Notes: a model not told the origin generated them from the sequence alone. Shown: positions 25,912-59,218, numbered from the stretch's first letter. The stretch: DNA of 64,000 nt from an uncultured Candidatus Saccharibacteria bacterium (GCA_964623775.1 CAZUVH010000003.1:5739-69738), one strand, 5' to 3'. Translations and numbers: made by a program.

Positions 25912-25920
25912 AGTCCTTTA

Positions 25921-26953: not shown

Positions 26954-26959
26954 AATTGC

Positions 26960-27781
26960 ATGTACATAGTTGCTGACATCGGAGGTACGAAGACGCGGGT
27001 CGCCGCGAGCCATGATCTCGAGAAATTCGACGAGCCTGTCATTGTTGACACAATCCAAGAATACGACAAGGGGATAGCCCAACTCTCGGATGTTATCAGT
27101 CAGGTGGCTGGAGCAGAACACGTAGATGCAATCGCCGTCGCGATGGCGGGAGTGCTCTCGCATGACAAACGTATGGTGAGTGGTGCGCGGCACCTGCCGT
27201 TTTGGAGAAGCCACGACATCGTAGGCGATCTTGAGAAAACGTTTAGCACGGAAGTGCATATGGAAAACGACACTGCGCAGGTAGGCCTCGGTGAAGCGGT
27301 ATACGGCGCGGGGAAGGGCGCTGAGATCGTCGTTTACGTCACCGTCTCTACAGGAGTGAATGGGGTACGGATCGTCGGCGGCAAAATCGAGCCCGCTGCG
27401 CTCGGATTTGAGATCGGCGGACAGTATCTCATCATGGGAGACACTCCTCGGGATCTTGAGGATTTGATCTCTGGTAAGGCGATCAGCGAAAAATATGCCG
27501 TCGCTTCACCGAAGATGATTGCCAAAGATTCTCCTATATGGGAAGAGCTTGCCGAATACTGCGCCTACGGTGTGCACAACACAATCCTGCACTGGTCGCC
27601 GCACCGTGTCGTTCTCGGTGGGTCCATGTTTAATGAGATCGGCATCAAGGTCGATCGCGTGCACCATCACGTACAGCGGCTCATGAACAAACTCCCTGAA
27701 GTGCCGGAAATCGTGCACTCAAGCCTGGGCGACCTCGGTGGCCTCTGGGGCGGCATGGCCATCCTAAAAATACATCGTTAG
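26960..27781 (+). CDS. ROK / BadF-type sugar kinase (glucokinase-like)
   Basis: N-terminal …IVADIGGTKTRVA… ATPase motif of the ASKHA sugar-kinase fold; size 273 aa. Confidence 0.65.
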   Translation: MYIVADIGGTKTRVAASHDLEKFDEPVIVDTIQEYDKGIAQLSDVISQVAGAEHVDAIAVAMAGVLSHDKRMVSGARHLPFWRSHDIVGDLEKTFSTEVHMENDTAQVGLGEAVYGAGKGAEIVVYVTVSTGVNGVRIVGGKIEPAALGFEIGGQYLIMGDTPRDLEDLISGKAISEKYAVASPKMIAKDSPIWEELAEYCAYGVHNTILHWSPHRVVLGGSMFNEIGIKVDRVHHHVQRLMNKLPEVPEIVHSSLGDLGGLWGGMAILKIHR

Positions 27782-34698: not shown

Positions 34699-35481
34699 TT
34701 ATTGCCGCAATCCCAGGCCCGTGCGGATCAAATACCAATTGATAGCCACGAGCGCTACGATCATTGTCGCAAGGACGATAAGTGGAATGAAAAGTGGTAT
34801 ATCGGAAATGCCGAGGAATCCATAACGGAAGCCGTTGATGAGATAGAAGATCGGATTCACGTATGTCACGTACTGCGCCAATTGCGGCAGTGCGTGTACG
34901 GAGTAGAAGACGCCACCGAGGTAGACGAGCGGCGTGAGCACGAAAGTCGGGACGAGGTTTATGCCGTCGATCGTTTTTGCGTAGACGCCGTTGACGAGTC
35001 CCGCGAGAGAAAAGACGATAGCGGTGAGGACGCCAAACCCGAGAATGATGAGGAGATTGTGCGTGTCGAGGTGGAGCCCGGTGAAAAAGAGCGACACAAA
35101 CATGACAAGTGTCCCGACGAGCACGCCGCGAATGACACCGCCTGCAACGAAGCCGGAGATAATGAGCCACGGCGGCATTGGGGAGACGAGCATTTCATCG
35201 ATTGAGCGCGCAAAGAATTTTGACTGGAAAAAGGTGAAGGAAGAATTGGCGTAGGAAGAGGTGACGATCGCGAGCATCACGAGACCTGGCACGACGAAGC
35301 TCATGTAATCGACACCCTGCATTTCACCGATTCGAGACCCGAGGACGGTGCCAAATACGAGAAAGTACAGCACCGACGTAATAACACTCGGAAGAAATGT
35401 CTGTACCCAAATACGAAATATACGCGTCACGTCTTTGCGCAACATCGTATAAAAGGCGATCCATTTACGACGATTATCCAT
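34699..35481 (-). CDS. ABC-2 type transporter permease
   Basis: 6-TM ABC-2 permease pattern. Start at MDNRRKW directly after the ATPase stop (1-nt gap). Confidence 0.75.
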   Translation of the reverse strand: MDNRRKWIAFYTMLRKDVTRIFRIWVQTFLPSVITSVLYFLVFGTVLGSRIGEMQGVDYMSFVVPGLVMLAIVTSSYANSSFTFFQSKFFARSIDEMLVSPMPPWLIISGFVAGGVIRGVLVGTLVMFVSLFFTGLHLDTHNLLIILGFGVLTAIVFSLAGLVNGVYAKTIDGINLVPTFVLTPLVYLGGVFYSVHALPQLAQYVTYVNPIFYLINGFRYGFLGISDIPLFIPLIVLATMIVALVAINWYLIRTGLGLRQ

Positions 35482-35482
35482 A

Positions 35483-36259
35483 TTATTTATCAGAGGTAAG
35501 TTTAAGGAATACTTCTTCGAGCCTGCCGCCACGGTAGCCGTCTTGTGGCTTGCCTGAATCATCGTGCATAGCGAGGATCTCACTCATCGTGCCGTTGGCG
35601 ACAATCTGCCCTTTGTTGATGATCGCCACGTGTTTTGCGAGTTGCTCGGCTTCTTCAAGATAGTGCGTGGTGAGAAGAATCGTGAGACCGTCTGCGGTCA
35701 ATTTTTTCAGATAATCCCACATGCCTCGGCGCAATTCGACATCGACACCTGCGGTAGGCTCATCGAGAATAAGGAACTGCGGTTTGTGGATGAGTGCACG
35801 GGCGATCATGAGGCGGCGCTTCATACCGCCCGAGAGCTGCATGCCGGTGCCATACATTTTTTCGCCAAGTCCAAGATCACTGAGGAGTTGCTTGGCACGC
35901 GGGATCGCTTCCGAACGGGGGATGCCGTAGTAGCCGCCCTGATTGATCACTGTGTCGATCGGTCTTTCAAACGGATTGAAATTGATCTCTTGGCCGACGA
36001 GGCCGATGTACGTCTTTGCTTTCTCGGTCTCTTTGTCTGTATTGTGACCAAATACTTCCACAGTGCCGCTCGTTTTATTCACGAGCCCTGCAGTGATGCC
36101 GATGATGGTCGTCTTGCCGGCGCCGTTGGGTCCGAGGAGGGCGAAGAAATCGCCACGCGGAATATCAAGTGAGATACCTTTGAGAGCCTGGACACCATTG
36201 CTGTAGGTTTTGGTGACGTCTCTAATTGAGAGTGCGCTTATGTCCTTATTTTCGGCCAT
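35483..36259 (-). CDS. ABC transporter ATP-binding protein
   Basis: Walker A GPNGAGKTT, signature LSGGMKRRL, Walker B ILDEPT. Confidence 0.85.
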   Translation of the reverse strand: MAENKDISALSIRDVTKTYSNGVQALKGISLDIPRGDFFALLGPNGAGKTTIIGITAGLVNKTSGTVEVFGHNTDKETEKAKTYIGLVGQEINFNPFERPIDTVINQGGYYGIPRSEAIPRAKQLLSDLGLGEKMYGTGMQLSGGMKRRLMIARALIHKPQFLILDEPTAGVDVELRRGMWDYLKKLTADGLTILLTTHYLEEAEQLAKHVAIINKGQIVANGTMSEILAMHDDSGKPQDGYRGGRLEEVFLKLTSDK

Positions 36260-36366
36260 ATAACGAAGAAGTGTATCACAAAAGATGAAGATTCCGCTGA
36301 ATTGACTTCACTATGTATAAGTGGTTAAGTGTGCACAGAATCGATGTTTGTAAATAGGAGTGGAAA

Positions 36367-37269
36367 ATGAGCACGGAAGATCGGAGTACGGAATTCATCG
36401 ACGAGATGAATCCTCATCGGGCACTGCGGTTCTTGCTCAAGGAATTGGGTGCACCCAAGTCGGTGAGGGATGCTAAAAGACAGATCCACAAAGCCGTGGA
36501 CGCGATCTCGGATCGTCTGTCGACCGGAAAAGGCCGACTCATTTATGTCGGTGCAGGTACGTCTGGCCGCCTCGGTGTGCAGGACGGTGCGGAACTTTGG
36601 CCGACCTTTGGTTGGCCGAAAGAGCGGTTTGCGTATCTTATTGCCGGCGGCGACAAGGCGCTTACTCAGTCGGTGGAAAGGGCTGAGGACGATATCACGG
36701 ACGCCTTCCTGCGTGTCCGCGATCTGGAAATCGGAAAAAACGACATTGTGATCGCGCTTGCCGCAAGCGGCAGCACGCTCTTTACGCGCAAGGCAGTCAA
36801 TGAGGCAAAAAGTTGCGGCGCTCTCACCATCGGGATCGCGAACAATGGGGGCAGCCCACTTCTCGAAGAGTGTGATCATCCCATTTTTCTTGATACAGGA
36901 GCGGAACCGATCGCCGGATCGACGCGTATGAAAGCGGGGACGTCGCAGTGTGTCGTCCTCAAGATTCTTTCGACGCTCGTAATGGTACGGCTCGGGTACG
37001 TGTACAAGGGAATGATGGTCAATGTACGCGCCGTAAATGACAAATTGAAAAGGCGCGCGGTCGCTATGGTACAAACGATTACCCGATGTGATAAGGAATG
37101 GGCCGAGCAGGCGCTTCTGCAAGCCGATTGGGAAGTGGGTGTGGCCGTCGTTATGCACGGCGGTACCGCGCTCCCGTGCGCGCAAAATCAGTTTCTCGAT
37201 ATATATGAGAGGAATTTGCGCGAATACTTTATCGGGGAAAAAATCATACAAGCGACGCGAATGAAATAA
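36367..37269 (+). CDS. murQ: N-acetylmuramic acid 6-phosphate etherase
   Basis: SIS domain with …YVGAGTSGRLG… and …GSTRMKAGTSQ… MurQ signatures. Confidence 0.8.
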   Translation: MSTEDRSTEFIDEMNPHRALRFLLKELGAPKSVRDAKRQIHKAVDAISDRLSTGKGRLIYVGAGTSGRLGVQDGAELWPTFGWPKERFAYLIAGGDKALTQSVERAEDDITDAFLRVRDLEIGKNDIVIALAASGSTLFTRKAVNEAKSCGALTIGIANNGGSPLLEECDHPIFLDTGAEPIAGSTRMKAGTSQCVVLKILSTLVMVRLGYVYKGMMVNVRAVNDKLKRRAVAMVQTITRCDKEWAEQALLQADWEVGVAVVMHGGTALPCAQNQFLDIYERNLREYFIGEKIIQATRMK

Positions 37270-37271
37270 CA

Positions 37272-37299
37272 AAAAGCGGGATCACACTGGTCCCGCTTT
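37272..37299. terminator. bidirectional hairpin aaagcggg-atcacactg-gtcccgcttt plus TTCTTTTT
   Basis: Between convergent murQ and the phosphohexomutase gene. Confidence 0.65.
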
Positions 37300-37313
37300 T
37301 CTTTTTGCCTTTC

Positions 37314-38702
37314 TCAGGAGCGGATGAGCGCAAGGATCTCGTCGCGCTTTTTTTCCATAAGCTCTTTGTATGTGGCTTCAACGATGAGGCGAATCAGGGG
37401 CTCGGTATTGGAGAGGCGTACGCTAAACCAGTAGTCATTGTACGTGATCGAAAGTCCGTCGATCTGTGAGAGCGCACCATCCCTGTATTTTTCCTGGATC
37501 TGTTTCAATTTCTCGAGACCCTTTTCTCGACTTTCGAGCTTTGTATTGATCTCCCCCGAATTGAAATAGCGCTTATATGGCTTTACGATTTCTGAAAACG
37601 GCTTATCCTTTGCGGTGAGAAAATGGAGAAGCTTCGAGAGGAGCATAAAAGGCGCCTCAAACGTGCCGTAGGGGAGTTTGTAAAAAAAGTGCCCGGAAGA
37701 TTCTCCACCGAAGATCGCCTTTTCCTTGATCATGATCTCTTTTATGATCGAGTGCCCAACGGGGGAGCGGATCGCTCGACCGCCCGCGTCGTCGATCATG
37801 TCGCGCGTGATCTTGCCGGGGCGCACATCGTATACCACTGTGGCACCGATGTGCGTGAAAAGTTCGATCTGCGCAAGAATGCCACGCAATATTTCTTGCG
37901 GGACCAGCTCGCCTTTTTCGTCGAAGAAAAAGTAGCGGTCGCCATCGCCATCAGAGGAGATGCCGAGATCGCAGTGTTCCTCGACGATCTTTTTACGCAG
38001 GTCGGCGGTGTTCTCCTCCTTCATGGGGTCTGCTGGATGCGCAGGGAAGGTGCCGTCGGGCGTATCGTTCATCCATACGACTGTGCACGGCAATTTTGCA
38101 AAAAAAGCCTTCATGTCGGGACCGCCCATGCCGTTTGCCCCATCGATCGCGATCTTGAACGGTTTGATCTTGGCAAAATCTTTGCCGATTTCCTCCATTT
38201 GTTCGTTGAGAATTGTGTCGAGGACGCCGGGTCGCTGCTGCAAAATGCCACGATCCTTTTCAGCTACCAGCGGCGCGTACTGGTCGTTTTCGATCGTCTT
38301 TTTTACCTCTTCAATTCCGCTCGTGTAGCTGACGGGCGTTGCATGGCGGCCGACAAATTTGAATCCGTTCCAGTCCTTGGGATTATGCGAGGCCGAGACC
38401 TGTGCGCCGGCATCGTAGCCGTAATATGCGACGGCAAAATAAAAAGTCGGCGTGGAGAGCATGCCGATGTCGTCGACTGCGATACCACTATCGAGCAGAC
38501 CTCGGATGAATTGCTGCTTGAGCTCGGGCGTCGAAAGACGCATGTCTCCCGCCACCGCGACACGCATCGTCTCGCGGGGCATTTTTTTGAGGAGGAACGT
38601 CGCATAGCTTCGCCCGATCGCATACGCGACATCTGTATTGATCTGAGAGGGGTAGAGGCCGCGGACATCGTAGGCTTTAAATATGGATGCTTCAACTTTC
38701 AC
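37314..38702 (-). CDS. phosphoglucomutase/phosphomannomutase family protein
   Basis: 462 aa; …GAQVSASHNPKDWNGFKF… contains the SASHNP phosphoserine-loop motif; apparently GTG start. Confidence 0.8.
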   Translation of the reverse strand: MKVEASIFKAYDVRGLYPSQINTDVAYAIGRSYATFLLKKMPRETMRVAVAGDMRLSTPELKQQFIRGLLDSGIAVDDIGMLSTPTFYFAVAYYGYDAGAQVSASHNPKDWNGFKFVGRHATPVSYTSGIEEVKKTIENDQYAPLVAEKDRGILQQRPGVLDTILNEQMEEIGKDFAKIKPFKIAIDGANGMGGPDMKAFFAKLPCTVVWMNDTPDGTFPAHPADPMKEENTADLRKKIVEEHCDLGISSDGDGDRYFFFDEKGELVPQEILRGILAQIELFTHIGATVVYDVRPGKITRDMIDDAGGRAIRSPVGHSIIKEIMIKEKAIFGGESSGHFFYKLPYGTFEAPFMLLSKLLHFLTAKDKPFSEIVKPYKRYFNSGEINTKLESREKGLEKLKQIQEKYRDGALSQIDGLSITYNDYWFSVRLSNTEPLIRLIVEATYKELMEKKRDEILALIRS

Positions 38703-38838: not shown

Positions 38839-40032
38839 TCAGGATACGTCGCCTGAGTAGTCCACAAGTATTTCACTCACAGTACTGACCTGCTCTCTTC
38901 CGGTGGCCTCAGTACTTTTGGACGCACTCGGCAAGAGTACTGATACGGTTGTACCGCTTCCCACCTCGCTTCTCACGGTAATCTTGCCGCGGTGCATGCG
39001 CACAAGCTCGGAGACAATCGTGAGGCCAAGGCCAGAGCCGCCCTGTATACGCGAACGCGAAGGATCGCCACGATAAAATGGTTCGAAAATGCGAAAGAGG
39101 TCTTTGCGGGCGATACCCACACCCGTGTCGCGCACGGTGAGTTCGACCTGCCCGCTTGCAGTTTGCCATGTCGTCAGGATCACAGAGCCGCCACGCGGAG
39201 TGTGGGTGATCGCGTTCTTGATGAGATTGCTCAGTATTTGCTGCAACGCTGTCATGTTGCCATATACATACACGTCGGTGCTTTTGCGCACGGTAATCTG
39301 CACGTTGCAGCGCGCCGCAAGACCAGCGTGCTTCGCCACAGCTTCACTCGCGAGTGCCGAAATATCGATCGAGCTGAACTCCATCTGCTCGGGACGGGTG
39401 AGACTCGAGAGCGAGAGGAGGTTGTTGATAATCTCTGATATGCGGTCGAGTTCCTCTACATTGCTCGTAATTGCCTCCTTGATGTCTGGCGTGATGGACG
39501 AATCAAAAAGCATGATCTCGCTGTTGGTCTTTATGACCGAAAGTGGCGTGCGCAGTTCGTGCGCGATATTGCCAATAAATTGCTTTTGCGCGGCGAGCGC
39601 GCTACGGGCAGGGGAGAGTGTTATGCGCGATATGATGTATCCGAAGACCATTGTGGCGACGACAATAAAAATCCCCATGAGGCCGACGTTCTGTAGGCGC
39701 AGCTGTTTCGTCTCTGCAATTATTCCAGGGGCGACCACACTTGCCGCATTGTGAGAAATTGATTCGCTGATCGTCGAGAAGATGATGGCCGCCACATCGT
39801 GCGAGAGCGTGTTGAAGACGACGAGAATCACGCCGATGATGAGCGACGCGAAAATCACCTGGAGTCCCAAGACGCGAATCTCCACCCGGAAGAACGGGTC
39901 GTCCTCGTATCTATTGAGCCAATCGGTAACCAATGCCGCGAACCGTTTCAAGGAGGTCGCGACCGTTTCCTTCACTGAGTTTGCGTCGGAGGTTTTTGAC
40001 ATGGACATCGACGACGTTACTGAATCCCACAT
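38839..40032 (-). CDS. sensor histidine kinase (2 TM, HisKA + HATPase_c)
   Basis: …IAHELRTPLSV… H-box; …GGSGLGLTIV… G2 box. N-terminal 40 codons overlap the upstream RR gene, so the start is uncertain. Confidence 0.8.
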   Translation of the reverse strand: MWDSVTSSMSMSKTSDANSVKETVATSLKRFAALVTDWLNRYEDDPFFRVEIRVLGLQVIFASLIIGVILVVFNTLSHDVAAIIFSTISESISHNAASVVAPGIIAETKQLRLQNVGLMGIFIVVATMVFGYIISRITLSPARSALAAQKQFIGNIAHELRTPLSVIKTNSEIMLFDSSITPDIKEAITSNVEELDRISEIINNLLSLSSLTRPEQMEFSSIDISALASEAVAKHAGLAARCNVQITVRKSTDVYVYGNMTALQQILSNLIKNAITHTPRGGSVILTTWQTASGQVELTVRDTGVGIARKDLFRIFEPFYRGDPSRSRIQGGSGLGLTIVSELVRMHRGKITVRSEVGSGTTVSVLLPSASKSTEATGREQVSTVSEILVDYSGDVS

Positions 40033-40585
40033 AATTGAAATCCCATAGATGATTAAGAAGGTCTTCGCGGTTTACGACTTGATTCGGGTGTCTCATGAAG
40101 TACTCGAGGAGCCCAAACTCCTTAAGCGTGAGCGAGATCTCCTTTCCTTCGCGTGTGACCTTGCGGCTACTAGGATTCAACTCTATCTCATCGAACTTGA
40201 GTTTCTCGGGAAGGGACTCCGTAGGGCGTCGCAAGAGCGCACGAGCTCTCGCCACTAATTCTGCAAATGAGAACGGCTTGACCAGGTAATCATCGGCGCC
40301 GGACGAGAGGAGCTTGACCTTGGTGTCTGTCTCGGCGCGGGCAGTGAGGATAAGGATGGGGACCGTGATATTCCATTCGCGAACCTGCTTACAGATCTCG
40401 AGGCCGTCCATCGACGGGAGCATGAGGTCGAGAATAATGAGGTCATAATCGCTTCGATGGAGGGAAATGCGCGTGAGCGCCTTCTTGCCGTCGGGGATCA
40501 CGTCGACCGTGTACCCCTCAAGAGCGAGTCCTTTGGAGAGGGCTGAAGATAATTTCTGTTCATCTTCAACGAGTAAAATTTTCAT
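39911..40585 (-). CDS. OmpR-family response regulator
   Basis: MKILLVEDE…DLIILDLMLP… receiver domain plus winged-helix C-terminus (…RGIGYRL…). Confidence 0.85.
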   Translation of the reverse strand: MKILLVEDEQKLSSALSKGLALEGYTVDVIPDGKKALTRISLHRSDYDLIILDLMLPSMDGLEICKQVREWNITVPILILTARAETDTKVKLLSSGADDYLVKPFSFAELVARARALLRRPTESLPEKLKFDEIELNPSSRKVTREGKEISLTLKEFGLLEYFMRHPNQVVNREDLLNHLWDFNYVGFSNVVDVHVKNLRRKLSEGNGRDLLETVRGIGYRLAQ

Positions 40586-40803
40586 ACGTATCTTTTTGAT
40601 ATTGGCTAACGATTAAGAGCCCGAAATTGGCTTTAAACATATATACAACAGTGAATATGAAGGATTCATGATCCACTCTCTACCTCGCACTTTACTTGCC
40701 AAACTGGCAAACACAGGGTGTGCTTGCCACACGCTTTCTACAATACAAAGCGCCCTTGACGCAAGGGCATTTTATATGTCCATTACTTCATGAAGTTGCA
40801 GCG

Positions 40804-41676
40804 TTAGAGCTGCAATCCCTTCAGGAAATCCTTGAAATCACTGCCAATATCTCCGTGTTTGAGGCCAAATTCAACGACTGCCTTCATGTAGTCTAATTTA
40901 TTTCCCGTATCGTAGTATTTTCCATTCTGAATCTCGACGGCATGGATGTCCGTCTCTTTGGCAAGTGCGGTGATCGCATCGACGAGCCAGATTTCACCGC
41001 CCTTGCCGGGTTTTACTTGCTCGAGGAGGTCAAAAAGTCGCGGTGGCATGATGTAGGCGCCGTGCGTCGCGAGATCCGAGGGAGCCTCTTCCATTTTGGG
41101 CTTTTCGACGATCTTATTAATCTTGAAGACATTTTTCTCCACAGGAGAAATGTCGGCAATGCCGTACTTGCTCACGGCCGTCTTAGGTACGCGTACTGCA
41201 GAAATATTCGGTTTCTCATATTTCTCCCATGCGTCGATCATTTGCTTGAGACGCGGGGGGTCGGAATAAATAAACTCATCGCCCCAGAGAATTGCAAACG
41301 GCTCGTCGCCGATCACTGATCGGCAATTCATGACCGGTGTACCGTTGCCATACGATCCTTTTTGGCGCACGTATATAAAATTCGCCATCTCCGCAATCTT
41401 GGTGACCTCTTTTGCTTGCTCCTCTTTGCCGTTCTCTCTGAGATAGCGGGAGAGTGCAAAAGGGAAGTCGAAATGATCTTCGATCGAGCGTTTGTTCCAG
41501 CCGGTGACGATCACGATGTCGCGGATGCCTGCGGCGATCGCTTCTTCGACGACGATCTGGATGATGGGCTTGTCGACGATCGGGAGCATCTCTTTGGGCA
41601 TCGCCTTCGTGGCAGGCAAAAAGCGCGTGCCATATCCTGCTGCCGGAATAATCGCCTTCCTAATTTTCTGTGCCAT
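40804..41676 (-). CDS. galU: UTP-glucose-1-phosphate uridylyltransferase
   Basis: MAQKIRKAIIPAAGYGTRFLPATKAMPKEMLPIVDKP… canonical GalU N-terminus; start at the internal Met of the longer ORF. Confidence 0.85.
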   Translation of the reverse strand: MAQKIRKAIIPAAGYGTRFLPATKAMPKEMLPIVDKPIIQIVVEEAIAAGIRDIVIVTGWNKRSIEDHFDFPFALSRYLRENGKEEQAKEVTKIAEMANFIYVRQKGSYGNGTPVMNCRSVIGDEPFAILWGDEFIYSDPPRLKQMIDAWEKYEKPNISAVRVPKTAVSKYGIADISPVEKNVFKINKIVEKPKMEEAPSDLATHGAYIMPPRLFDLLEQVKPGKGGEIWLVDAITALAKETDIHAVEIQNGKYYDTGNKLDYMKAVVEFGLKHGDIGSDFKDFLKGLQL

Positions 41677-41933
41677 GCCCCTCACACGAAAAGGCATTGC
41701 TGCTTTGCAGCAGAACAATACCTGTTCGTTACTAGTGAATAAGCCGCACGATGTGAAGAATCAGTGGGTGTTGAAACTAACAATACCTTTTCGTGTGTTG
41801 GGGCCATGCCGAGCATTGTAGCAAACGAATGGAGATGAGTGCAGTGCCCAGCGCCAGTAGGCGGCGGGTGCAAGACCAAATTTGCGCGCTACGCCCGCCG
41901 TGCGCAAAAAATGCATTTTTCTGTGGACAATGA

Positions 41934-42818
41934 TCAGATGAGCTCCGCGTGGAAACTTTGGAATTGGACATCCATGAAGTCGGTGCGGATGCCGATGTGG
42001 CCTTCGCCGATTATCGGTGTGTTGCCGAATCGCTTACCGTCGTCGAGTGCCGAGAGAATCTCGTGCCACGTGCCTTTCTCGTCGGTCAAATACATCCGAA
42101 TTGTGACGGTGCCGTCTCGTTGCGTGATGGTCTGTGCGCGCAGACCAAGCCATGTGTCGTGGGGGAGCAGATTTATGTCCTCGACACGCGAATAGTGTCC
42201 GGGAAATATTTTTTGCTGCGCCATCGTGTAATACACCCCTTGATACTTTTTCTTGATGACCGCGGTCCCGTCGACGCGGATGCCCGCGTAGTAGAGCGTC
42301 TCGCCCGTAGGGCTACGACCGAGGGTGTCGCCGTCTTGATAGCGACTCATGAGGAGGACGCCGTTGGATTCATTGCGATTTTTGCTCCGACTGAAATTAT
42401 CGGCTGTTATTTTGAAGAAAAATTCTTGTTGGACATTGCTCCAGAGGCTTTTGGATACGAGACGGAAGATATTTTGCGGATGGAATCCGTTGTCGGTGTC
42501 CACCGGATTGGTGATCGCGTAGGCGAGGCGCCAGTGATCGAGAATCGCGAGACGTCCTTGCACGGTACCGCCGTATGAGCCGTTGTCGAACATCTTGCCG
42601 CCGGAATCGAGCCACCAGTATGGGCTCGAACTGTGTTCCGTAGAGTCGGACTCATAGAGAATTTCAGGCACGTTGAATACGTAGGTGAATGATGACGGGC
42701 GAAGCGGCTGCTCCTCAGCTGGCGGCGCACTGCGCTGTGAAATTATGTGCATGGCCGCAAGAATCGCGATGGTCGCGAAAATAACGAGGGTAATCCTGAG
42801 GCGATTCTGTAGCCACAT
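41934..42818 (-). CDS. hypothetical membrane-anchored (periplasmic) protein
   Basis: Start at MWLQNRLRITLVIFATIAILAA (TM anchor), 4 nt after the upstream gene stop; no recognisable domain. Confidence 0.45.
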   Translation of the reverse strand: MWLQNRLRITLVIFATIAILAAMHIISQRSAPPAEEQPLRPSSFTYVFNVPEILYESDSTEHSSSPYWWLDSGGKMFDNGSYGGTVQGRLAILDHWRLAYAITNPVDTDNGFHPQNIFRLVSKSLWSNVQQEFFFKITADNFSRSKNRNESNGVLLMSRYQDGDTLGRSPTGETLYYAGIRVDGTAVIKKKYQGVYYTMAQQKIFPGHYSRVEDINLLPHDTWLGLRAQTITQRDGTVTIRMYLTDEKGTWHEILSALDDGKRFGNTPIIGEGHIGIRTDFMDVQFQSFHAELI

Positions 42819-42820
42819 GG

Positions 42821-44389
42821 CTAGGGGAGTGCTCGTACGGAGAGATCTGCAAAGGTGCTCTTGGCGACGCCAAAGCGCGCATCCCACACTTTGACACCAA
42901 TGCCGCCAGTCGAGAGGTCGTTGAAAGCGGCACTCACTACCGCACTACCATCGACAAAACACTGTACCGACTGCCCCTCGACGCGCATCCCGAGCAAGAG
43001 GGGGCCATGCAATGTAGTGCGCGGCACGAACGCAAGGCGGATCACTTCCTCTCCACGCTGCTCGTCGACGGCGACGCCGTTTCGTAGGACCGAGCAGGCG
43101 ACGTTGCGCGTATCGTCGGTATTGCGAGCGATAAGCGCCACGTTCTCGCCGGCGATCCACACCACGCTCGCGGTGAATTCGTAATCGCGCCACCACCCCG
43201 AGCCGTTCAAAAAGCCCGATGATCCGGTCGAATCGCTCCGCGCAGCGAGGGTAATCGTGCCGTTTTCTTTTTCGATATCTCCCCAGATGCCCACCCATTC
43301 GTCGCCGATACGTGCCGAAGTGTAGGGAAGAGGCTTCGCGTACCCGGCTTCGAGCGCCCGCATAAGATCTTGCCCATCCCAATTGAGCGGAGGCTCGATG
43401 CGCTTGATCGCAAACACGTCTTTGTCTGGGTAATTAAATGAGTCACCGTTGGCGCTCCAGTGCTGGTAGAAGGCAAATGTATATATGGATGGCACGACTC
43501 GCGCGATAATCTCGGTGGAGCCGGAGAAATTCACTGTGCTTTCTCCGAAATCATTGAACGGATAGGCAAAGGAGTGGACGGTATGGCCGAATGTCTTTTC
43601 GAGTCTTTGGCGTGCCTCGATGAGGTCGGTCCGTATACGCGTCGCAAATTCCTCGTCGGTCTCGAAGCGGTTGGCCGCATCGTTCCAGAATTTATTGCTC
43701 AAGAAATTGCCCTGCACTGTCTGCGCATCCTGCGAGAGGTCGGTCGTGCTCTGAACGTTGTATTTGAAGTGGTCTCTGTGTCCGTGCGACTGCAATTCCC
43801 ACCGCCCCGTCTCCAGCATGAAGTCGAGCTCCTTCTTAGTGAGGTAAAAGTCGGCGGGCTTGCCTTTGTCGGGCATCGAGAATCCCGTGACGACAAACAT
43901 GACGCTGTGGAACCCCATGTCATCGAGTATCGGATCGAATGGATAGAAAGTGTCGCGGCGGCCGTCGTCGAATGTGAGGAGGAATGATTTGTCGGGGAGC
44001 TGTTTGCCGTTTTTCATAAAATCATGAAACTCGGTCATGGCGATCGTGCGCCAACCGTTCTTCTTGAGTGCTCGCATTTGGTCGACGAAGAGCGAGACAG
44101 GTGTATTGCCTTTGGACGCACTTTCGCCGTGGTAGAGCAAGACGGGGATGGACTTGGCGGGAATGGTCGAAGTCGCTTGAGCATACGCGGAGACGTCGCT
44201 CTGCGGATATTTGTAGAATACCCAGTAATACGTCGTGGCTCGTATACGCGAAATGAGCGATGAACTGCTTAGTGTAAATCCAGAAACGGCGTCAAAAAGT
44301 AAAAATACACCGATGCCGGTCGCTATGAGTACTAAAGCGACTGTGATCGGAAACACTTTCTCTTTGGTGGCTTGGATATACGCTGACAT
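42821..44389 (-). CDS. polysaccharide deacetylase (NodB-homology) family protein with N-terminal TM and an extra C-terminal domain
   Basis: …FLLTFDDGRRDTFYP… (TFDDG motif 1), …HSVMFVVTG…, …ELQSHGHRDH… (His motifs). Confidence 0.7.
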   Translation of the reverse strand: MSAYIQATKEKVFPITVALVLIATGIGVFLLFDAVSGFTLSSSSLISRIRATTYYWVFYKYPQSDVSAYAQATSTIPAKSIPVLLYHGESASKGNTPVSLFVDQMRALKKNGWRTIAMTEFHDFMKNGKQLPDKSFLLTFDDGRRDTFYPFDPILDDMGFHSVMFVVTGFSMPDKGKPADFYLTKKELDFMLETGRWELQSHGHRDHFKYNVQSTTDLSQDAQTVQGNFLSNKFWNDAANRFETDEEFATRIRTDLIEARQRLEKTFGHTVHSFAYPFNDFGESTVNFSGSTEIIARVVPSIYTFAFYQHWSANGDSFNYPDKDVFAIKRIEPPLNWDGQDLMRALEAGYAKPLPYTSARIGDEWVGIWGDIEKENGTITLAARSDSTGSSGFLNGSGWWRDYEFTASVVWIAGENVALIARNTDDTRNVACSVLRNGVAVDEQRGEEVIRLAFVPRTTLHGPLLLGMRVEGQSVQCFVDGSAVVSAAFNDLSTGGIGVKVWDARFGVAKSTFADLSVRALP

Positions 44390-44476
44390 AAAATTTACAA
44401 TTTACAATTTTCAATCAATTTCCAATGATAAATTTTCATTTGAAAATTAAAAATTGAGAATTGAAAATTCATATTT
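44390..44476. repeat. 87-bp strongly AT-rich repetitive intergenic island (ACAATTT / TTGAAAATT-type direct repeats) inside the GC-rich EPS operon
   Basis: aaatttacaatttacaattttcaatcaatttccaatgataaattttcatttgaaaattaaaaattgagaattgaaaattcat. Confidence 0.6.
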
Positions 44477-45793
44477 CTATCGGGTGCCCCACTTGGTGTC
44501 CGCGATCGTGATCACCGCCCACGGGAGCTGCCACATGAGGACGACGGTGTAAAACCAGAACGTCGCAACGGGCCAAAGCCATGGCTCGCCCCTGCGGTGT
44601 GCGCGGTAGTAGAGGCCGTGGAGTGCGAGCATGATGAAAAGTCCGAAGAGATAGACGAACGGCATGATGCCGGAGAGAAATGGATTCCATACCATCGCAT
44701 GGAGAAAGACAATCGGGGAGGAAAATGCGAGGAAGAGGTATATGTAAAAGAAAAGCGCGGCAAACTTGTTCTTCCTCCAGATAAATGTCGCCGCGATCAT
44801 GGTCTCGCGCACCCACGATTTTTTCCACCGCTGCTGTTGGCGCATATATTTGCCGAATGTGTCGGGCACGACCGTGACGGCTTTTGCGTCGGGATTGTAG
44901 GTGGCGTCGTATTTACGAAGCATGTAATTGGTGAGCGAGCGATCGTCGCCGAAGGTGCATTCGCGTCCCAAGAATTTCTGATGGAGCCATTCGTCGATGA
45001 ATTCGAGGAGATATTCGCGGCGATATGCAGAACAGCAACCGGGGCAGCACGTCACAATCCCAAAGATCGATTCTGCCGCTTTGTAGACCCTGAATGACAC
45101 GTAGTAGCGCAGCGTCTGCATCTGTGTGAGTAGATTTGTATCTTTATTGTGGACATCAGTGTGGCCGGAGACGGCACCGATCTGCGGCTGTACAAAATAC
45201 TTTACGAGCTCACGGACGCAGTCTTTCTCCACGAAACTGTCCGAATCGATAAAAATAATGATGTCATTTCGCGCGCGCTTAACGCCCTCGGCCATGCCGT
45301 GGCGTTTACCGAGATTTACCTCGAAATTCACGACCTCGACGCGTGCTATTGTGGTCCTGATCGATTCCGCCGCCTGCAGCATCATCTCGTAGGTGCGATC
45401 GGTCGATCCATCGTTGATCGCAATGACCTCGATTTTCTTGAGCGGATAATTTACCTCCGCGAATCTTTGAATAGTTTCGTAGATATTGTCCTCCTCATTC
45501 TTTGCGGGCACCACGAAGCTGATTGTCGGCTCATACGAGGGGTCGGCATAGACCGGCGCATGAAAATACGAGAGGAGAAATCTGGATAACACGTAGAACG
45601 TGATCGCGATCGAGTAGATACCAAAGAAAAGACCGTCATTGATGTAATTTCCACCCATGACTTTGATGAGGACAATGACATAGAGGACGACAAAAAATGC
45701 AAACCACCACCCCGACCACCAGGAGGCAAGACGCGTCTCAGAATTTCGCTCAAGCGTCGGTTGAGCGATCACACTGTCCACAGCATTATTCAT
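44477..45793 (-). CDS. processive family-2 glycosyltransferase (HasA / NodC / PgaC-like polysaccharide synthase)
   Basis: N- and C-terminal TM clusters; …FVVPAKNEEDNI…IEVIAINDGSTDRT… (DxD/DGS region); …MRQQQRWKKSW… is the QxxRW motif of processive beta-glycosyltransferases. Confidence 0.75.
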   Translation of the reverse strand: MNNAVDSVIAQPTLERNSETRLASWWSGWWFAFFVVLYVIVLIKVMGGNYINDGLFFGIYSIAITFYVLSRFLLSYFHAPVYADPSYEPTISFVVPAKNEEDNIYETIQRFAEVNYPLKKIEVIAINDGSTDRTYEMMLQAAESIRTTIARVEVVNFEVNLGKRHGMAEGVKRARNDIIIFIDSDSFVEKDCVRELVKYFVQPQIGAVSGHTDVHNKDTNLLTQMQTLRYYVSFRVYKAAESIFGIVTCCPGCCSAYRREYLLEFIDEWLHQKFLGRECTFGDDRSLTNYMLRKYDATYNPDAKAVTVVPDTFGKYMRQQQRWKKSWVRETMIAATFIWRKNKFAALFFYIYLFLAFSSPIVFLHAMVWNPFLSGIMPFVYLFGLFIMLALHGLYYRAHRRGEPWLWPVATFWFYTVVLMWQLPWAVITIADTKWGTR

Positions 45794-45795
45794 AT

Positions 45796-47226
45796 TTAGC
45801 GGCGACCGATTCCGCGGTACGTGATGGATGAACCGGCAAAAGAATCTTTGTCGAGACAATTGCGTCCGTCGACAACGATCGAAATGCCGAATTTTTCAAA
45901 ATCTTCAGGTGTAAGGTCGCGAAATGCGGCGTGATCGGTAGCGATCACGACCGCGTCAGCGCCATCGAGCGCTTCTTCAAGACTTTTTGCGCTCGACTCG
46001 CGCGGAATGTACGGATCCCACGTGCGTACAGTGGCGCCGCCCTCGATCAATCCTTTTTTTATAGCGAGCGCGGGACTTTCGCGTACGTCCGGGACGTCAC
46101 GCTTGTATGCGAGGCCCAAGAGCGCAACCTTCGAACCCTGGAGACCCATGTCGCGTTTCTCAAGCGCGTCCTCAAGTACATTTACTGTATAGAGCGGCAT
46201 ATTGTTGTTGATGCGCCGAGCAGTCATGAGGAAGCGGTGCGCAAAGCCATTCTCTTCGCCATAACGAATCAGATAATACGGATCGACCGGGATGCAGTGT
46301 CCACCGACGCCACAACCGGGATAATGCGGCATAAAACCAAAAGGTTTGGTGGAAGCGCCCTTGATGACGTTGACCACATCTATACCGGCACGATCAAACG
46401 CCATCGCGAGTTCGTTGACGAAGGCGATGTTGATATCGCGGAAGGAGTTCTCCACCATCTTTACCGCCTCTGCTTCTTTGATCGAATCCATCGGGACGAT
46501 CTCGGCATCGACGAGTGTGCGGTAGACGCGCGATGCGAGGCGAAGACTCTCATAATTGAGTCCGCCGACGACGCGGGGGATCGTGCGCACGTCCCATGTG
46601 GCATCGCCAGGATTGATACGTTCGGGGCAGTGCGCAAAATAAAATTGGTCGCGGGAGAGTCCGGATTCTTTCTCAATGATCGGAAGCGAGACCTCTTCGC
46701 AGGCGCCGGGATTGACCGTGGACTCGATGATGACAAGTGCGCCCTCTGTAATATTCTGACCGACTATTTTGGAGGCATCCTCAAGTGGACGAAGATCAGG
46801 GAGGTGGTCTTCGTGTACGGGCGTGGGGACGCACACGATAAATGTGTCCGCACCTTTCAATTTCGATTGATCTGCTGTGACGGTGAGGGATCGTGCCCGC
46901 TTGAATTGACCCGACTCCTCTTCGTTGAGGAAATTTGCTTCACGCTTTTCAAGCTGCGCGACCTTCACTTCGTCGATATCGAATCCAATGACCTTGAATC
47001 CGCGCGTTGCGGCGAGTATGGCGAGCGGCAATCCGACGTAGCCGAGGCCCACAATCGCAATCGTAGACGTTGTGGTCTGGTCGCTTTGCCCTGCGTCGGA
47101 TCTTGTGACGATGTCATTAAAATCAGAAGAAGACTTTCTCCCCGATGTTTTTGTTTTCCGTGTTTGTGAAATTTCAGCGATCTGTTCTGGTGACATAAAA
47201 AATTTGACGCTACTACCTTTGGGCAA
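45796..47226 (-). CDS. ugd: UDP-glucose 6-dehydrogenase (nucleotide-sugar dehydrogenase family)
   Basis: …IAIVGLGYVGLPLA… NAD-binding motif; …GGHCIPVDP… catalytic Cys region. N-terminal ~60-aa low-complexity extension, so the start is uncertain. Confidence 0.8.
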   Translation of the reverse strand: MPKGSSVKFFMSPEQIAEISQTRKTKTSGRKSSSDFNDIVTRSDAGQSDQTTTSTIAIVGLGYVGLPLAILAATRGFKVIGFDIDEVKVAQLEKREANFLNEEESGQFKRARSLTVTADQSKLKGADTFIVCVPTPVHEDHLPDLRPLEDASKIVGQNITEGALVIIESTVNPGACEEVSLPIIEKESGLSRDQFYFAHCPERINPGDATWDVRTIPRVVGGLNYESLRLASRVYRTLVDAEIVPMDSIKEAEAVKMVENSFRDINIAFVNELAMAFDRAGIDVVNVIKGASTKPFGFMPHYPGCGVGGHCIPVDPYYLIRYGEENGFAHRFLMTARRINNNMPLYTVNVLEDALEKRDMGLQGSKVALLGLAYKRDVPDVRESPALAIKKGLIEGGATVRTWDPYIPRESSAKSLEEALDGADAVVIATDHAAFRDLTPEDFEKFGISIVVDGRNCLDKDSFAGSSITYRGIGRR

Positions 47227-56472: not shown

Positions 56473-57024
56473 ATGATGTATTCGTGGCGTCTCCCTCGGG
56501 CCGACTTTTTTCGGCCATATCTCCACGGGACATTCGACGCACGTTCGCGATCCGGCATTTTTGCTGCTTTAGCGGTATCCATTTCACTTACGTTTTTAAT
56601 AGCAACGATCGTCCAGGGCTATCAGGACACTTCGGCCGACACTCTCCCCGGCATCCCAAAAACAGGGGAAGTGCTTCGCGTCACCGATAGGGTCGTGGCG
56701 ACCACGAGCGCTCCTGTAGCGGTAAGGAGTCATCCTATGCGCGAGGTGCACGTGGCCAACAACGGCGCGGTGTATCTGCGCGGTGCGCGAATCACCGCGA
56801 TTAGTTCATCATCGATCACCGTATCTTCCGGATGGGGATCGATGGATTTTTCGTGGGACGTGGTCACAGGGATCGGCACACGGTATATCAATGCAAAAGG
56901 TGAAGCGATTAAGCGAAGCAGTCTCAAGGTGGGTACCATCGTCGCAGTGACGGGCGTGCTTGATGAAAGCGCACACTCAGCCTCTATGCGCGGACAATAC
57001 ATCCGCGTGAGTAAATCAAATTAG
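56473..57024 (+). CDS. hypothetical membrane-anchored secreted protein
   Basis: TM anchor IFAALAVSISLTFLIATIV then a ~140-aa beta-rich domain; start uncertain (alternative Met at 56392). Confidence 0.4.
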   Translation: MMYSWRLPRADFFRPYLHGTFDARSRSGIFAALAVSISLTFLIATIVQGYQDTSADTLPGIPKTGEVLRVTDRVVATTSAPVAVRSHPMREVHVANNGAVYLRGARITAISSSSITVSSGWGSMDFSWDVVTGIGTRYINAKGEAIKRSSLKVGTIVAVTGVLDESAHSASMRGQYIRVSKSN

Positions 57025-59141: not shown

Positions 59142-59218
59142 ATCGTGTCGACTGCGGGATGCTACATCTTACTTGGGGAAAACTCAAGGTGTCGCTTCCG
59201 CAAAATTTCATATTGGAT

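Follow-up and report, generated by a model that had tools for sequence, protein, structure and literature searches.

The window analysed here, the whole stretch of 64,000 nucleotides, carries a real polysaccharide-synthesis operon that is conserved across the tiny-genome Paceibacteria/Kaiserbacteria of the candidate phyla radiation (CPR). Judging from the sequences, we lean towards an acidic surface polymer of the chitin/hyaluronan kind, partly de-acetylated, as its product; this would consist of GlcNAc and probably GlcNAc-uronic acid and be de-N-acetylated outside the cell.

RESULTS

Organization of the locus

Five ORFs, all on the minus strand, occupy positions 40804–41718, 41934–42887, 42821–44389, 44477–45859 and 45796–47226 of the window. 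The gene calls of three public contigs encoding identical proteins have shorter starts and show no overlaps. The features of the region are as follows.

45796–47196, minus strand: NAD-dependent nucleotide-sugar 6-dehydrogenase, TviB/WbpA-like, 466 aa, with three UDPG_MGDP_dh domains
44477–45793, minus strand: processive, membrane-embedded GT2 synthase of the class-I hyaluronan synthase/NodC/chitin synthase type, 438 aa
44390–44476, minus strand: spacer of 87 nt, mostly A+T, between the GT2 and deacetylase genes (read from the sequence)
42821–44389, minus strand: deacetylase, whole gene call (public contigs with identical proteins)
43340–44389, minus strand: N-terminal part of the deacetylase, with TM anchor and long helix (aa 1–70) and CE4 de-N-acetylase domain of the PgaB/IcaB type (aa ~80–350)
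42821–43312, minus strand: C-terminal β-sandwich of the deacetylase (aa ~360–522), CBM66/concanavalin-like fold, stop codon included
41934–42818, minus strand: conserved 294-aa protein, with N-terminal TM anchor and extracytoplasmic CBM66/concanavalin-like β-sandwich
40804–41697, minus strand: GalU (UTP-glucose-1-phosphate uridylyltransferase), 297 aa (TIGR01099)
40751–40769, minus strand: terminator-like GC hairpin (8 pairs, 5 GC) with a T-rich tail behind it, downstream of galU
39911–40585, minus strand: OmpR-family response regulator (Pfam Response_reg and Trans_reg_C)
38839–39951, minus strand: histidine kinase (Pfam HisKA and HATPase_c)

The start of the GT2 gene lies 2 nt from the stop of the dehydrogenase gene, and the same distance separates the deacetylase stop from the start of the gene for the 294-aa protein (~295 aa in the family); in one relative, the dehydrogenase and GT2 genes overlap by 4 nt. 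A hairpin scan found no terminator-like site inside the block running from the dehydrogenase to the ~295-aa protein. The GT2/deacetylase spacer, which measures 87 nt here as compared with 5–26 nt in relatives, sits in one of only three islands of the 64-kb window with a G+C content below ~22%, and may possibly represent an internal promoter or a regulatory spacer.

GalU narrowly exceeds the cut-off of TIGR01099 (327.6 versus 326.8 bits). It is separated from the cluster by a 236-nt gap upstream of galU, containing TGCTACAAT; among relatives, galU is found next to the cluster at just 1 of 58 loci. GalU is thus a lineage-specific local neighbour outside the conserved module, and probably forms its own transcription unit. 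A phosphoglucomutase-family gene is found just downstream, near GalU, in the window genome, and an ABC-2 permease/ATPase pair is located at 34699–36259, ~5 kb from the cluster.

Conservation of the module

The relatives compared comprise 59 species-level genomes. The order of the conserved core is GT2 synthase, CE4 deacetylase, ~295-aa protein: the deacetylase adjoins the GT2 in 50 of 51 loci, and the ~295-aa protein is adjacent in 42 of 45, with two further cases at greater distance. The sugar-nucleotide dehydrogenase is encoded directly upstream of the GT2 in 36 of 46 loci (78%). Since the four-gene block is kept across ~50 species, chance association is ruled out. The GT2s of the 10 loci without an adjacent dehydrogenase are scattered among the dehydrogenase-positive ones, and no GT2 residue tracking the presence or absence of the dehydrogenase was found. 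The dehydrogenase may therefore be dispensable, or encoded elsewhere. In 23 of 58 loci, the compared span, which reaches at most 7 kb to each side of the GT2, includes an orthologue of the response regulator (identity of 50% or more), in many cases directly upstream of the dehydrogenase gene. The OmpR-family response regulator and the histidine kinase, for which linkage to the module is frequent among relatives, are candidate regulators.

The synthase

The GT2 matches the Pfam families Glycos_transf_2 and Chitin_synth_2 (98 bits for the latter). Its top NCBIfam model is NodC (TIGR04242; 184.8 bits, cut-off 550), and the PgaC/IcaA model TIGR03937 gave 133.1 bits against 422.3. In pairwise comparison, HasA (197 bits) ranked before NodC (154 bits) and PgaC (111 bits). 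The best PDB matches in phmmer searches were XlHAS1 (5.5e-31) and CvHAS (1.3e-29). Residues 180–460, in the numbering of the longer 460-aa ORF (158–438 of the called protein), align with CvHAS 173–458 and XlHAS1 247–506, membrane part included, whereas the NodC match is limited to the GT domain, the C-terminal membrane half aligning with HAS and not with NodC. Identity to Bacillus cereus HasA is 33% over 410 aa, that is, over the full length, and both proteins end in WGTR. Across 24 family members, the motifs D183xD185, G282DDR285, Q319QQRW323 and W435GTR438 show no variation, and D128 is invariant as well; the DxD, GDDR, QxxRW and C-terminal WGTR motifs align with those of B. cereus HasA. Hydropathy places TM segments at 30–48, 55–73, 346–364 and 373–391 and, together with the phmmer alignment, indicates a HasA-type topology of two N-terminal TM helices, a cytosolic GT-A domain and C-terminal TM/interface helices. 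To judge from these features, the GT2 is a minimal enzyme of the class-I hyaluronan synthase/NodC/chitin synthase type with every catalytic motif. An identity of 33% to HasA is too low for transferring the alternating UDP-GlcA/UDP-GlcNAc specificity to the GT2. Homologues are labelled 'hyaluronan synthase' in the JGI annotation.

The dehydrogenase

By its scores in four independent comparisons, the dehydrogenase falls among the UDP-HexNAc dehydrogenases, TviB-annotated enzymes being its nearest relatives, and UDP-glucose dehydrogenases rank lowest in every one. Among the NCBIfam models, the archaeal UDP-ManNAc dehydrogenase (archaeal WecC) gave 341 bits (cut-off 750), TviB (NF011729) 265 (cut-off 592) and WecC 254, as compared with 195 for AglM (cut-off 670), 161 for TuaD (700) and 51 for Ugd (757) in the UDP-glucose group. 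The PDB comparison yielded 288 bits for 4r16, an archaeal WecC-type enzyme, 237 for Cap5O and at most 149 for UDP-glucose dehydrogenases; CalS8, a TDP-glucose dehydrogenase of the same clade, scored 201. The top of 1159 plasmid hits consisted of TviB/WbpA-annotated proteins (38–43% identity, 260–293 bits), and blastp gave 42% identity and 276 bits for a TviB-annotated enzyme, 33% and 209 for WecC, 29% and 145 for B. cereus HasB and 69 bits for E. coli Ugd. A HasB/Ugd-like UDP-glucose 6-dehydrogenase is not supported: the superfamily is the same, but the scores to UDP-N-acetylhexosamine dehydrogenases are far better. As the enzyme falls short of every equivalog cut-off, UDP-GlcNAc, UDP-ManNAc and UDP-GalNAc are all conceivable substrates; the predicted reaction is that of UDP-GlcNAc to UDP-GlcNAcA.

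The deacetylase and the CBM66-like protein

The CE4 domain of the deacetylase has the Asp-His-His metal triad, the catalytic Asp and the N-terminal His, and its active-site residues are conserved and align with those of PgaB. Its structural neighbours are exopolysaccharide deacetylases, with PgaB, IcaB and BpsB as the best matches in both sequence and structure; the score against the PgaB model TIGR03938 is 71.9 bits (cut-off 321.9). The GH153 domain of PgaB is absent from the deacetylase, its C-terminal domain being a CBM66-like β-sandwich. This domain and the ~295-aa protein share one list of structural neighbours, with CBM66 at the top, and the CBM66/concanavalin-like assignment rests on the β-sandwich fold and on occurrence appended to carbohydrate-active enzymes. 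No Pfam match was obtained for the 294-aa protein. Like the deacetylase, it has one N-terminal TM helix preceded by basic residues. The β-sandwich of the deacetylase is predicted to be a polymer-binding module, and the 294-aa protein a polymer-binding, possibly polymer-processing, partner; an enzymatic role of the latter may be kept in view, since the ~295-aa family has many invariant charged residues.

Elsewhere, the ~295-aa-protein domain is fused to a heparinase II/III-like lyase plus CE4, to GH5 or to GH6, beside related synthases. A variant cluster in three contigs consists of a dehydrogenase (55–57% identical), a GT2 and a protein combining heparinase II/III, CE4 and the ~295-aa-protein domain; the GT2 of these lyase-fusion clusters is only ~30% identical to that of the window. 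In another contig, the GT2 is followed by a GH5 domain flanked on both sides by the ~295-aa domain. Lyase or epimerase domains of the heparinase II/III family act on uronic acids.

DISCUSSION

The original prediction of an exopolysaccharide locus around a processive HasA/NodC-type GT2 agrees with the motifs and HAS alignments, and its placement by comparison with HasA, NodC and PgaC gave the descending series reported above. The order and coordinates of five co-directional minus-strand genes were borne out by the ORFs and the public-contig gene calls, as were the galU label (TIGR01099), the multi-TM nature of the GT2 with its invariant QQQRW motif and the membrane-anchored unknown, which is the 294-aa protein with its N-terminal TM helix; no terminator-like site splits the block from the dehydrogenase to this protein. 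Domain searches and structural neighbours likewise support a NodB-type deacetylase with an extra C-terminal domain, and the catalytic residues its PgaB/IcaB type. The idea of a single five-gene unit did not survive: the dehydrogenase, GT2, deacetylase and ~295-aa protein are kept together in relatives, but GalU, 236 nt away, is not. Nor can we retain the HasB-like UDP-glucose 6-dehydrogenase (145 bits to HasB versus 276 to TviB) or, with it and GalU, the hasABC gene set. The dehydrogenase being TviB/WbpA-like and not HasB-like, and GalU lying outside the module, N-acetylglucosaminuronic acid would be a more likely acid sugar than the glucuronic acid suggested previously.

In the pathway that we propose, the dehydrogenase would, from its family placement, convert UDP-GlcNAc of the peptidoglycan precursor pool into UDP-N-acetylglucosaminuronic acid in the cytoplasm. 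The GT2, given its fold, motifs and topology, would polymerise UDP-GlcNAc and, probably, the uronic acid donor along with it, and the β-linked chain would pass through the enzyme's own membrane channel, like the products of hyaluronan, chitin and cellulose synthases; in a single-membrane cell, a separate exporter would be unnecessary. Beyond the membrane, the TM-anchored CE4 enzyme of the PgaB/IcaB type may, as its residues and fold suggest, strip some of the N-acetyl groups while its own CBM66-like domain keeps it on the chain, and the polymer would bear both amines and carboxylates. The fold, conservation and fusions of the TM-anchored CBM66-like protein are consistent with binding of the same polymer, either for surface retention or for presentation for trimming. 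Finally, the operon may be under the control of the OmpR-type two-component pair that is frequently linked to it.

Alternatively, the GT2 may use UDP-GlcNAc only and the CE4 enzyme convert part of it to glucosamine, giving a chitin/chitosan-like homopolymer, with the dehydrogenase product destined for another glycan or serving as a minor or primer sugar. Indeed, the invariant core consists of the GT2, the deacetylase and the ~295-aa protein, the dehydrogenase is missing beside 10 of 46 GT2 genes, and no GT2 residue correlates with its presence. The Chitin_synth_2 match (98 bits), the NodC model at the top of NCBIfam, the GH5/GH6 fusions, which suit a β-1,4 backbone, and the GH18 enzyme, of a family requiring N-acetyl groups, that ends the Paenibacillus cluster described below would also fit. 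We nevertheless consider this explanation rather unlikely: the dehydrogenase gene stops 2 nt short of the GT2 gene in the window, the two overlap by 4 nt in one relative, and they are neighbours in 78% of loci and again in the Paenibacillus and giant-virus versions; moreover, orthologues of the dehydrogenase head the variant clusters whose processing protein has a heparinase II/III-like, uronic-acid-acting domain. A partly de-N-acetylated, hyaluronan-like GlcA–GlcNAc polymer following the hasABC logic, in which GalU would feed a UDP-glucose 6-dehydrogenase, seems improbable to us. It is rendered so by the scores of the dehydrogenase against HasB (145 bits) and Ugd (69) as compared with TviB (276), a ranking repeated in NCBIfam, PDB and the 1159 plasmid records, by the rarity of GalU beside the module (1 of 58 loci, and 236 nt away here), and by the 33% identity of the GT2 to HasA, NodC-type and viral enzymes being about equally distant. 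It would, on the other hand, account for the GT2 having hyaluronan synthases as its nearest solved and characterised relatives, for the JGI label of the homologues, for GalU and the phosphoglucomutase-family gene just downstream in the window genome, and for the presence of at least one glucose-nucleotide dehydrogenase, CalS8, in the dehydrogenase clade.

The resemblance of the CE4 domain to PgaB, IcaB and BpsB, in sequence and structure, and the 133 bits of the GT2 against the PgaC/IcaA model bring to mind a PNAG-like β-1,6-GlcNAc biofilm adhesin, with the CE4 enzyme as the PgaB/IcaB equivalent. Such a product is very improbable, as the GT2 is clearly nearer to HasA and NodC than to PgaC and shares GDDR and WGTR with the HAS/chitin-synthase branch, the gene calls show nothing small and PgaD/IcaD-like between the GT2 and deacetylase genes, and the deacetylase is without GH153. 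A short chito-oligosaccharide signal instead of a polymer is hardly to be expected: a synthase beside a deacetylase does recall nodBC, and NodC is the top NCBIfam model, but its 185 bits do not reach the cut-off (550); the gene calls of the cluster include no nodA-like acyltransferase, the C-terminal membrane half of the GT2 aligns with HAS and not with NodC, and two membrane-anchored CBM-like modules suit a retained polymer. A de-N-acetylated polymer of GlcNAc and probably GlcNAc-uronic acid is the reading that we favour.

Comparison with known systems

The hasABC operon of Streptococcus and the pXO1-type hasACB of Bacillus cereus/anthracis share with the CPR module the minimal synthase architecture, the motifs, the WGTR end, 33% full-length identity and a direct synthase–dehydrogenase linkage, but the window dehydrogenase is of the UDP-HexNAc type, GalU is no conserved member of the module, and the has operon is without a deacetylase and without CBM-like proteins. 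With pgaABCD/icaADBC, the module shares the synthase-dependent logic and an extracytoplasmic CE4 of the PgaB/IcaB subtype, catalytic residues aligned; the synthase, however, is from another GT2 branch, neither PgaD/IcaD nor an outer-membrane porin appears among the gene calls of the cluster, and a CBM66-like β-sandwich replaces the GH153 of PgaB. The closest annotated relatives of the dehydrogenase are the UDP-GlcNAc 6-dehydrogenases TviB, of the Vi antigen, and Pseudomonas WbpA. Their pathways involve GT4 or Wzy-type assembly and further epimerases, whereas the window dehydrogenase is paired with a processive GT2, in a cluster that has no epimerase gene.

Among GT2s from outside the CPR, the nearest one found (39% identity, 299 bits) is encoded in an uncharacterised locus of a Paenibacillus cellulositrophicus plasmid (NZ_CP045296.1), in the order CE4, TviB-like dehydrogenase, PilZ-GT2, CE4, GH18. 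The dehydrogenase, 41% identical to the window enzyme, lies immediately upstream of the GT2, and CE4 deacetylases, one of which matches the CE4 domain twice, flank the pair. Unlike the window GT2, the Paenibacillus enzyme carries at its N-terminus a PilZ domain, whose family is known to bind c-di-GMP, and GH18 takes the place of the CBM66-like protein.

The original remark that this is not a described system holds in part. In the literature searched, no account of the trio in CPR bacteria was found, but the trio of UDP-GlcNAc 6-dehydrogenase, hyaluronan/chitin-synthase-like GT2 and polysaccharide deacetylase has been recorded from the genomes of fungi and algal viruses, in reports that assign no product to it (PMC4059230, PMC5122149, PMC7053769). 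There, it is a cluster named UNGD–CHS8 ('CV class')–CDA1 in fungi, and occurs also in chloroviruses and phaeoviruses (PMC4059230, PMC5122149, PMC7053769). This UNGD–CHS-like–CDA cluster of three adjacent genes matches the CPR module in gene content (PMC4059230, PMC5122149), and giant-virus contigs likewise carry a gene for a TviB-type dehydrogenase beside one for a HAS-like GT2. The viral GT2s are ~30% identical to the window GT2 and no nearer to it than to HasA or NodC; the likeness put forward is one of gene content. The CPR module differs from the fungal and viral clusters in the CBM66-like domain on the deacetylase and in the fourth conserved gene, neither of which is mentioned in the accessible text of those reports. 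Tentatively, and as a possibility that we would not yet call probable, the module might make a β-linked GlcNAc/GlcN–GlcNAcA (hexosaminuronic) chain, a zwitterionic 'amino-hyaluronan' undescribed in any organism. This would be a lineage-wide coat of the Paceibacteria, held and processed by a new CBM66-like module family, and the same chemistry may then operate in the orphan dehydrogenase–synthase–deacetylase clusters of Paenibacillus, giant viruses and fungi (CHS8/CDA1).

Organization and conservation of the operon

The five co-directional minus-strand open reading frames (ORFs) of the original prediction are present in the window where it had placed them, and their likely true starts were taken from three public contigs that encode identical proteins.

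Features of the polysaccharide locus
45796-47196, minus strand: nucleotide-sugar dehydrogenase (DH), 466 aa
44477-45793, minus strand: GT2 synthase (GT2), 438 aa
44390-44476, minus strand: GT2/DA spacer, 87 nt, mostly A+T, with repeated AATTTTCAA / AAATTGTAAATTGTAAATT motifs
42821-44389, minus strand: CE4 deacetylase (DA), 522 aa
41934-42818, minus strand: protein without Pfam match (UNK), 294 aa
40804-41697, minus strand: GalU, 297 aa

The genes are separated by only 2 nt at the DH/GT2 and DA/UNK junctions, by 87 nt at GT2/DA and by 236 nt at UNK/GalU. The only clear terminator-like hairpin on the minus strand lies downstream of galU, and a hairpin scan detected no such site within the DH-UNK block. 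A sigma-70 scan, which is poorly informative for bacteria of the candidate phyla radiation (CPR), gave no promoter on the minus strand here, and an Rfam scan of the entire window found no structured RNA family. The GT2/DA spacer falls in one of only three islands with a G+C content below about 22% in the 64-kb window, and the corresponding gap in relatives is just 5-26 nt; it may act as an internal promoter, or be an insertion with a regulatory role. Since G+C is even across the window (about 0.50-0.56) and the neighbourhood consists of housekeeping genes, the DH-GT2-DA-UNK locus is chromosomal and native. By its homologues, the organism belongs to Candidatus Kaiserbacteria/Paceibacterota within the CPR.

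With one genome taken per species, 59 loci with a GT2 relative were collected, nearly all labelled Paceibacterota, Kaiserbacteria, Adlerbacteria, Harrisonbacteria or Patescibacteria. To count neighbours, the loci were searched by tblastn with the window proteins, the denominators being loci with enough flanking sequence; a DH was counted from 50% identity upwards, and the DH count was corrected by hand. DA, with both of its domains, lies directly downstream of GT2 in 50 of 51 loci, UNK follows within 3.2 kb downstream of GT2 in 42 of 45 (and further off in two more), and a DH directly precedes GT2 in 36 of 46. Four long contigs with independent gene calls show the identical DH-GT2-DA-UNK order amid unrelated surroundings, and GalU occurs anywhere in the locus in only 1 of 58 cases. 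The operon is therefore real and strongly conserved, its module proper being GT2-DA-UNK, usually headed by DH, with GalU as a local neighbour. A polymer-independent role for GalU follows from a block of glucose/α-glucan metabolism genes at 20829-27781 (GT4/GT5 starch-synthase-like, GH57, GH15, phosphoglucose isomerase and ROK kinase) together with a phosphoglucomutase/phosphomannomutase-family gene. The latter belongs to a group at 34699-38702, beyond the two-component genes, which also encodes an ABC-2 permease, an ABC ATPase (the type of pair serving glycan or teichoic acid export) and a 315-aa protein without Pfam match. None of this group is linked to the module in relatives, except that 2 of 59 loci show weak matches of the phosphoglucomutase type.

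An OmpR-type response regulator and a histidine kinase are encoded at 38839-40585. The orthologous regulator, 54-90% identical, occurs within 7 kb on either side of GT2 in 23 of 58 loci (L013-L020, L035, L062 and others), often with its kinase immediately upstream of DH; this recurrent linkage suggests dedicated regulation of the module. Elsewhere in the window, 57021-61264 encodes a tandem pair of paralogous hybrid histidine kinases, both of which combine a MASE1 membrane sensor with HisKA, HATPase and receiver domains. A series of large surface proteins is encoded at 8803-19004. It comprises one of 1498 aa with SpaA/SdrD repeats and a peptidoglycan-binding domain, one with a CAP domain, and a further two, each about 550 aa long, in which peptidoglycan-binding domains are combined with fibronectin/Ig-like ones.

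Modules 48-71% identical to that of the window carry odd taxon labels in some public MAGs (L042, L056 and L059, Woesearchaeota; L050, Gammaproteobacteria), and many public MAGs with the module are labelled 'uncultured Candidatus Saccharibacteria', at odds with the remaining set. Mis-binning or wrong automatic labelling, not true transfer, is the probable cause of these ill-fitting labels.

The synthase and the dehydrogenase

The synthase matches the Pfam families Glycos_transf_2 and Chitin_synth_2. Of the NCBIfam models, NodC (185 bits, cut-off 550) and PgaC/IcaA (133 bits, cut-off 422) fit it best, but both scores fall short, so that it is a member of neither. The best matches among solved structures are hyaluronan synthases (HAS), namely Xenopus HAS1 (5.5e-31) and Chlorella virus HAS (1.3e-29), and the alignment spans the membrane region up to the terminal WGTR, with which B. 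cereus HasA ends in exactly the same way.

Pairwise comparisons of the window GT2
Paenibacillus plasmid GT2: 39% identity, 299 bits, 387 aa
B. cereus HasA: 33% identity, 197 bits, full length (410 aa)
S. meliloti NodC: 33% identity, 154 bits, GT domain only
E. coli PgaC: 28% identity, 111 bits, 275 aa

Across 24 family members D128, DxD (183-185), GDDR (282-285), QQQRW (319-323) and WGTR (435-438) are invariant, and hydropathy indicates TM segments at both ends, two at the N-terminus and at least two at the C-terminus. These motifs and segments, together with the HAS alignment, bear out the processive type originally proposed and speak against a non-processive GT2. The protein is thus an enzyme of the HAS/NodC/chitin-synthase type. 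It forms a subfamily of its own, to which HasA, NodC and the HAS-like enzymes of viruses are about equally distant (about 30%).

The dehydrogenase scores highest with the NCBIfam models for archaeal UDP-ManNAc DH (341 bits), TviB (265) and WecC (254), followed by AglM (195), TuaD (161) and Ugd (51), but remains below the cut-off of every model compared. Matches among PDB entries follow the same order of preference: 4r16 (288 bits), Cap5O (237), 3g79 (231) and CalS8 (201) precede the UDP-Glc DHs (at most 149). In a set of 1159 plasmid records, the top places went to genes annotated as TviB or, without a gene name, as 'nucleotide sugar dehydrogenase' (38-43% identity, 260-293 bits), then to WecC (31-33%, about 208 bits) and HasB/YwqF-type enzymes (27-30%, 122-161 bits); likewise, blastp gave Leisingera TviB 42% and 276 bits, E. 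coli WecC 33% and 209, B. cereus HasB 29% and 145, and E. coli Ugd 69 bits. No epimerase-family match was found among the cluster genes and their immediate neighbours, which makes UDP-GlcNAc the most economical predicted substrate and UDP-GlcNAcA (UDP-N-acetylglucosaminuronic acid) the likely product. A Ser/Thr/Lys-rich extension of about 45 residues (residues 1-45, window 47062-47196) lies ahead of the Rossmann fold, and the protein is 466 aa long as against 446-453 in four orthologues on long contigs.

The deacetylase and the accessory domain family

In the AlphaFold model of DA, which is confident (pLDDT 91.4), a TM helix at the N-terminus is followed by a CE4 domain and, at the C-terminus, a β-sandwich. 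Its D141, D142, H202 and H207 align with D114, D115, H184 and H189 of E. coli PgaB (catalytic Asp and metal triad), and these residues together with H87 are invariant or nearly so in the family, which makes DA, by its active site, an exopolysaccharide-type de-N-acetylase and not a peptidoglycan deacetylase. DA is not PgaB itself: its score of 72 bits is well short of the cut-off (322), and it has no GH153 domain.

Pfam, NCBIfam and PDB sequence searches with UNK all returned no match, and each named protein among its 1740 homologues is hypothetical. Its model (pLDDT 88.6) shows a TM anchor and a concanavalin-like β-sandwich, and its residues E56, D107, R181, D183, K189-K191, R278 and D280 are invariant. 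Homology to the DA C-terminal domain was rejected (nothing by BLASTP, hhalign probability 2.8%); the two have only a common fold and a common list of structural neighbours. Profile-based searching of 1.84 billion representative proteins retrieved 687 clusters, many of them multi-domain. The UNK domain is appended to heparinase II/III-like N and C domains plus CE4, to GH6 with a peptidoglycan-binding domain (proteins P0378 and P0411) or a CAP domain (P0409), to GH5 (with two UNK copies), to CE4 plus PKD, and to BACON.

Some of these fusions occur within related loci.

UNK-domain fusions next to a GT2
L085 8001-12119, L086 3436-7554, L087 1952-5443: heparinase II/III-like lyase + CE4 + UNK domain
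L088 3431-6691: UNK-GH5-UNK protein

The first three proteins (1163-1372 aa), which make up a fused form of the module, directly follow a DH (55-57% identical to the window DH) and a GT2 (about 30% identical), and the fourth stands in the order GT2 (39% identical), small ORF, UNK-GH5-UNK. Gene fusion thus ties DA to UNK. In its behaviour UNK resembles a carbohydrate-binding module; it accompanies this synthase family and would be specific for its polymer. The 687 cluster representatives, for which there is no Pfam model, constitute a newly defined and hitherto undescribed accessory family.

Proposed mechanism and alternative products

We propose, with slightly more confidence than doubt for the scheme as a whole, that DH would supply UDP-GlcNAcA and that GT2 would polymerise UDP-GlcNAc, probably with UDP-GlcNAcA, the β-linked chain leaving through the channel of the synthase itself. 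The membrane-anchored CE4 enzyme, tethered to the chain by its CBM66-like domain, would then strip some acetyl groups outside the cell, UNK, judged by its fold and fusions, may bind, retain or present the chain, and a candidate for the regulator is the linked pair of OmpR-type protein and histidine kinase. No hydrolase or lyase is recognisable in the module as it stands in the window. The operon is a new variant among synthase-dependent exopolysaccharide systems, and its predicted product is an acidic, partly de-N-acetylated HexNAc polymer.

A chitin- or chitosan-like homopolymer is a serious option. About a fifth of the loci have no adjacent DH and show no matching change in GT2; these loci are scattered phylogenetically, and no GT2 residues tracking DH presence were found. 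The Paenibacillus relative, moreover, includes a GH18 gene. In favour of the acidic polymer, the lyase of the L085-L087 fusions occupies the same slot after the DH-GT2 pair, and its heparinase II/III-like lyase/epimerase fold is specific for uronic acid, which argues that the DH product is incorporated in the polymer. True hyaluronan, the product closest to the original hasABC reading, is suggested by the structural matches of GT2 but is unlikely because the DH is of the wrong type and GalU is not conserved. The original description of the parts was largely right, but its hasABC framing, rejected for DH and GalU after comparing families and synteny, and the glucuronic acid that it predicted are unsupported. 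PNAG and a Nod-factor-like product, to which the PgaC and NodC similarities might point, are likewise unlikely, since the placement of GT2 disagrees with both.

Members of the Paceibacteria have genomes below 1 Mb and are thought to live on other cells; to our knowledge, almost nothing is known of CPR surface glycans. The four-gene module is kept in about 50 species-level genomes, and its retention in such a lineage makes it likely to be central to the envelope or to host attachment. With only four small genes, its product is directly testable. Should both GlcNAcA and GlcN be present in it, a new material resembling glycosaminoglycans would result, one that might be of interest to biotechnology.

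Comparison with known clusters

For CPR bacteria, our literature search found the module nowhere described and traced it only to a one-line mention of a 'hyaluronan synthase' annotation in soil Parcubacteria MAGs; nor did it find a characterised product of the fungal or viral clusters. A viral-contig scan with family-specific peptides gave nothing; a broader pattern recovered ten viral loci, whose GT2s are no closer to the window GT2 than to HasA or NodC. A direct link or orthology of the CPR module to the viral and fungal clusters, as judged from such similarities, is unproven.

Excerpts of published work describe clusters of a UDP-GlcNAc 6-dehydrogenase and a chitin/hyaluronan-synthase-like GT2, in part with a polysaccharide deacetylase, in several fungi, chloroviruses and a phaeovirus (PMC4059230, PMC5122149, PMC7053769). 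In the same excerpts, chs8 is strongly induced during Trichoderma mycoparasitism (PMC4059230, PMC5122149, PMC7053769), Trichoderma cda1 knockouts are severely compromised in mycoparasitism and disruption of Fgchs8 in Fusarium impairs virulence (PMC7053769). Two IMG/VR giant-virus MAG contigs with a G+C content of 23-29% (L078 4109-7110, L079 154-3121), in which a TviB-type DH adjoins a HAS/NodC-like GT2, recall the chlorovirus cluster as these excerpts present it.

Among bacteria, the Paenibacillus cellulositrophicus plasmid NZ_CP045296.1 (L067) carries at 3505-11171 the order double-CE4 protein, TviB-like DH, PilZ-GT2, CE4 and GH18, its DH gene being absent from the PLSDB gene table; the PilZ domain on the synthase suggests c-di-GMP control. 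The gene logic of the CPR operon is like that of this cluster and of the fungal and viral ones, to which it adds two CBM66-like modules. It is tempting to see in all of them one new GlcNAcA-containing polysaccharide, a possibility that we nevertheless hold to be somewhat less likely than not. The CPR module offers a compact, intron-free bacterial version of the trio of fungi and algal viruses.
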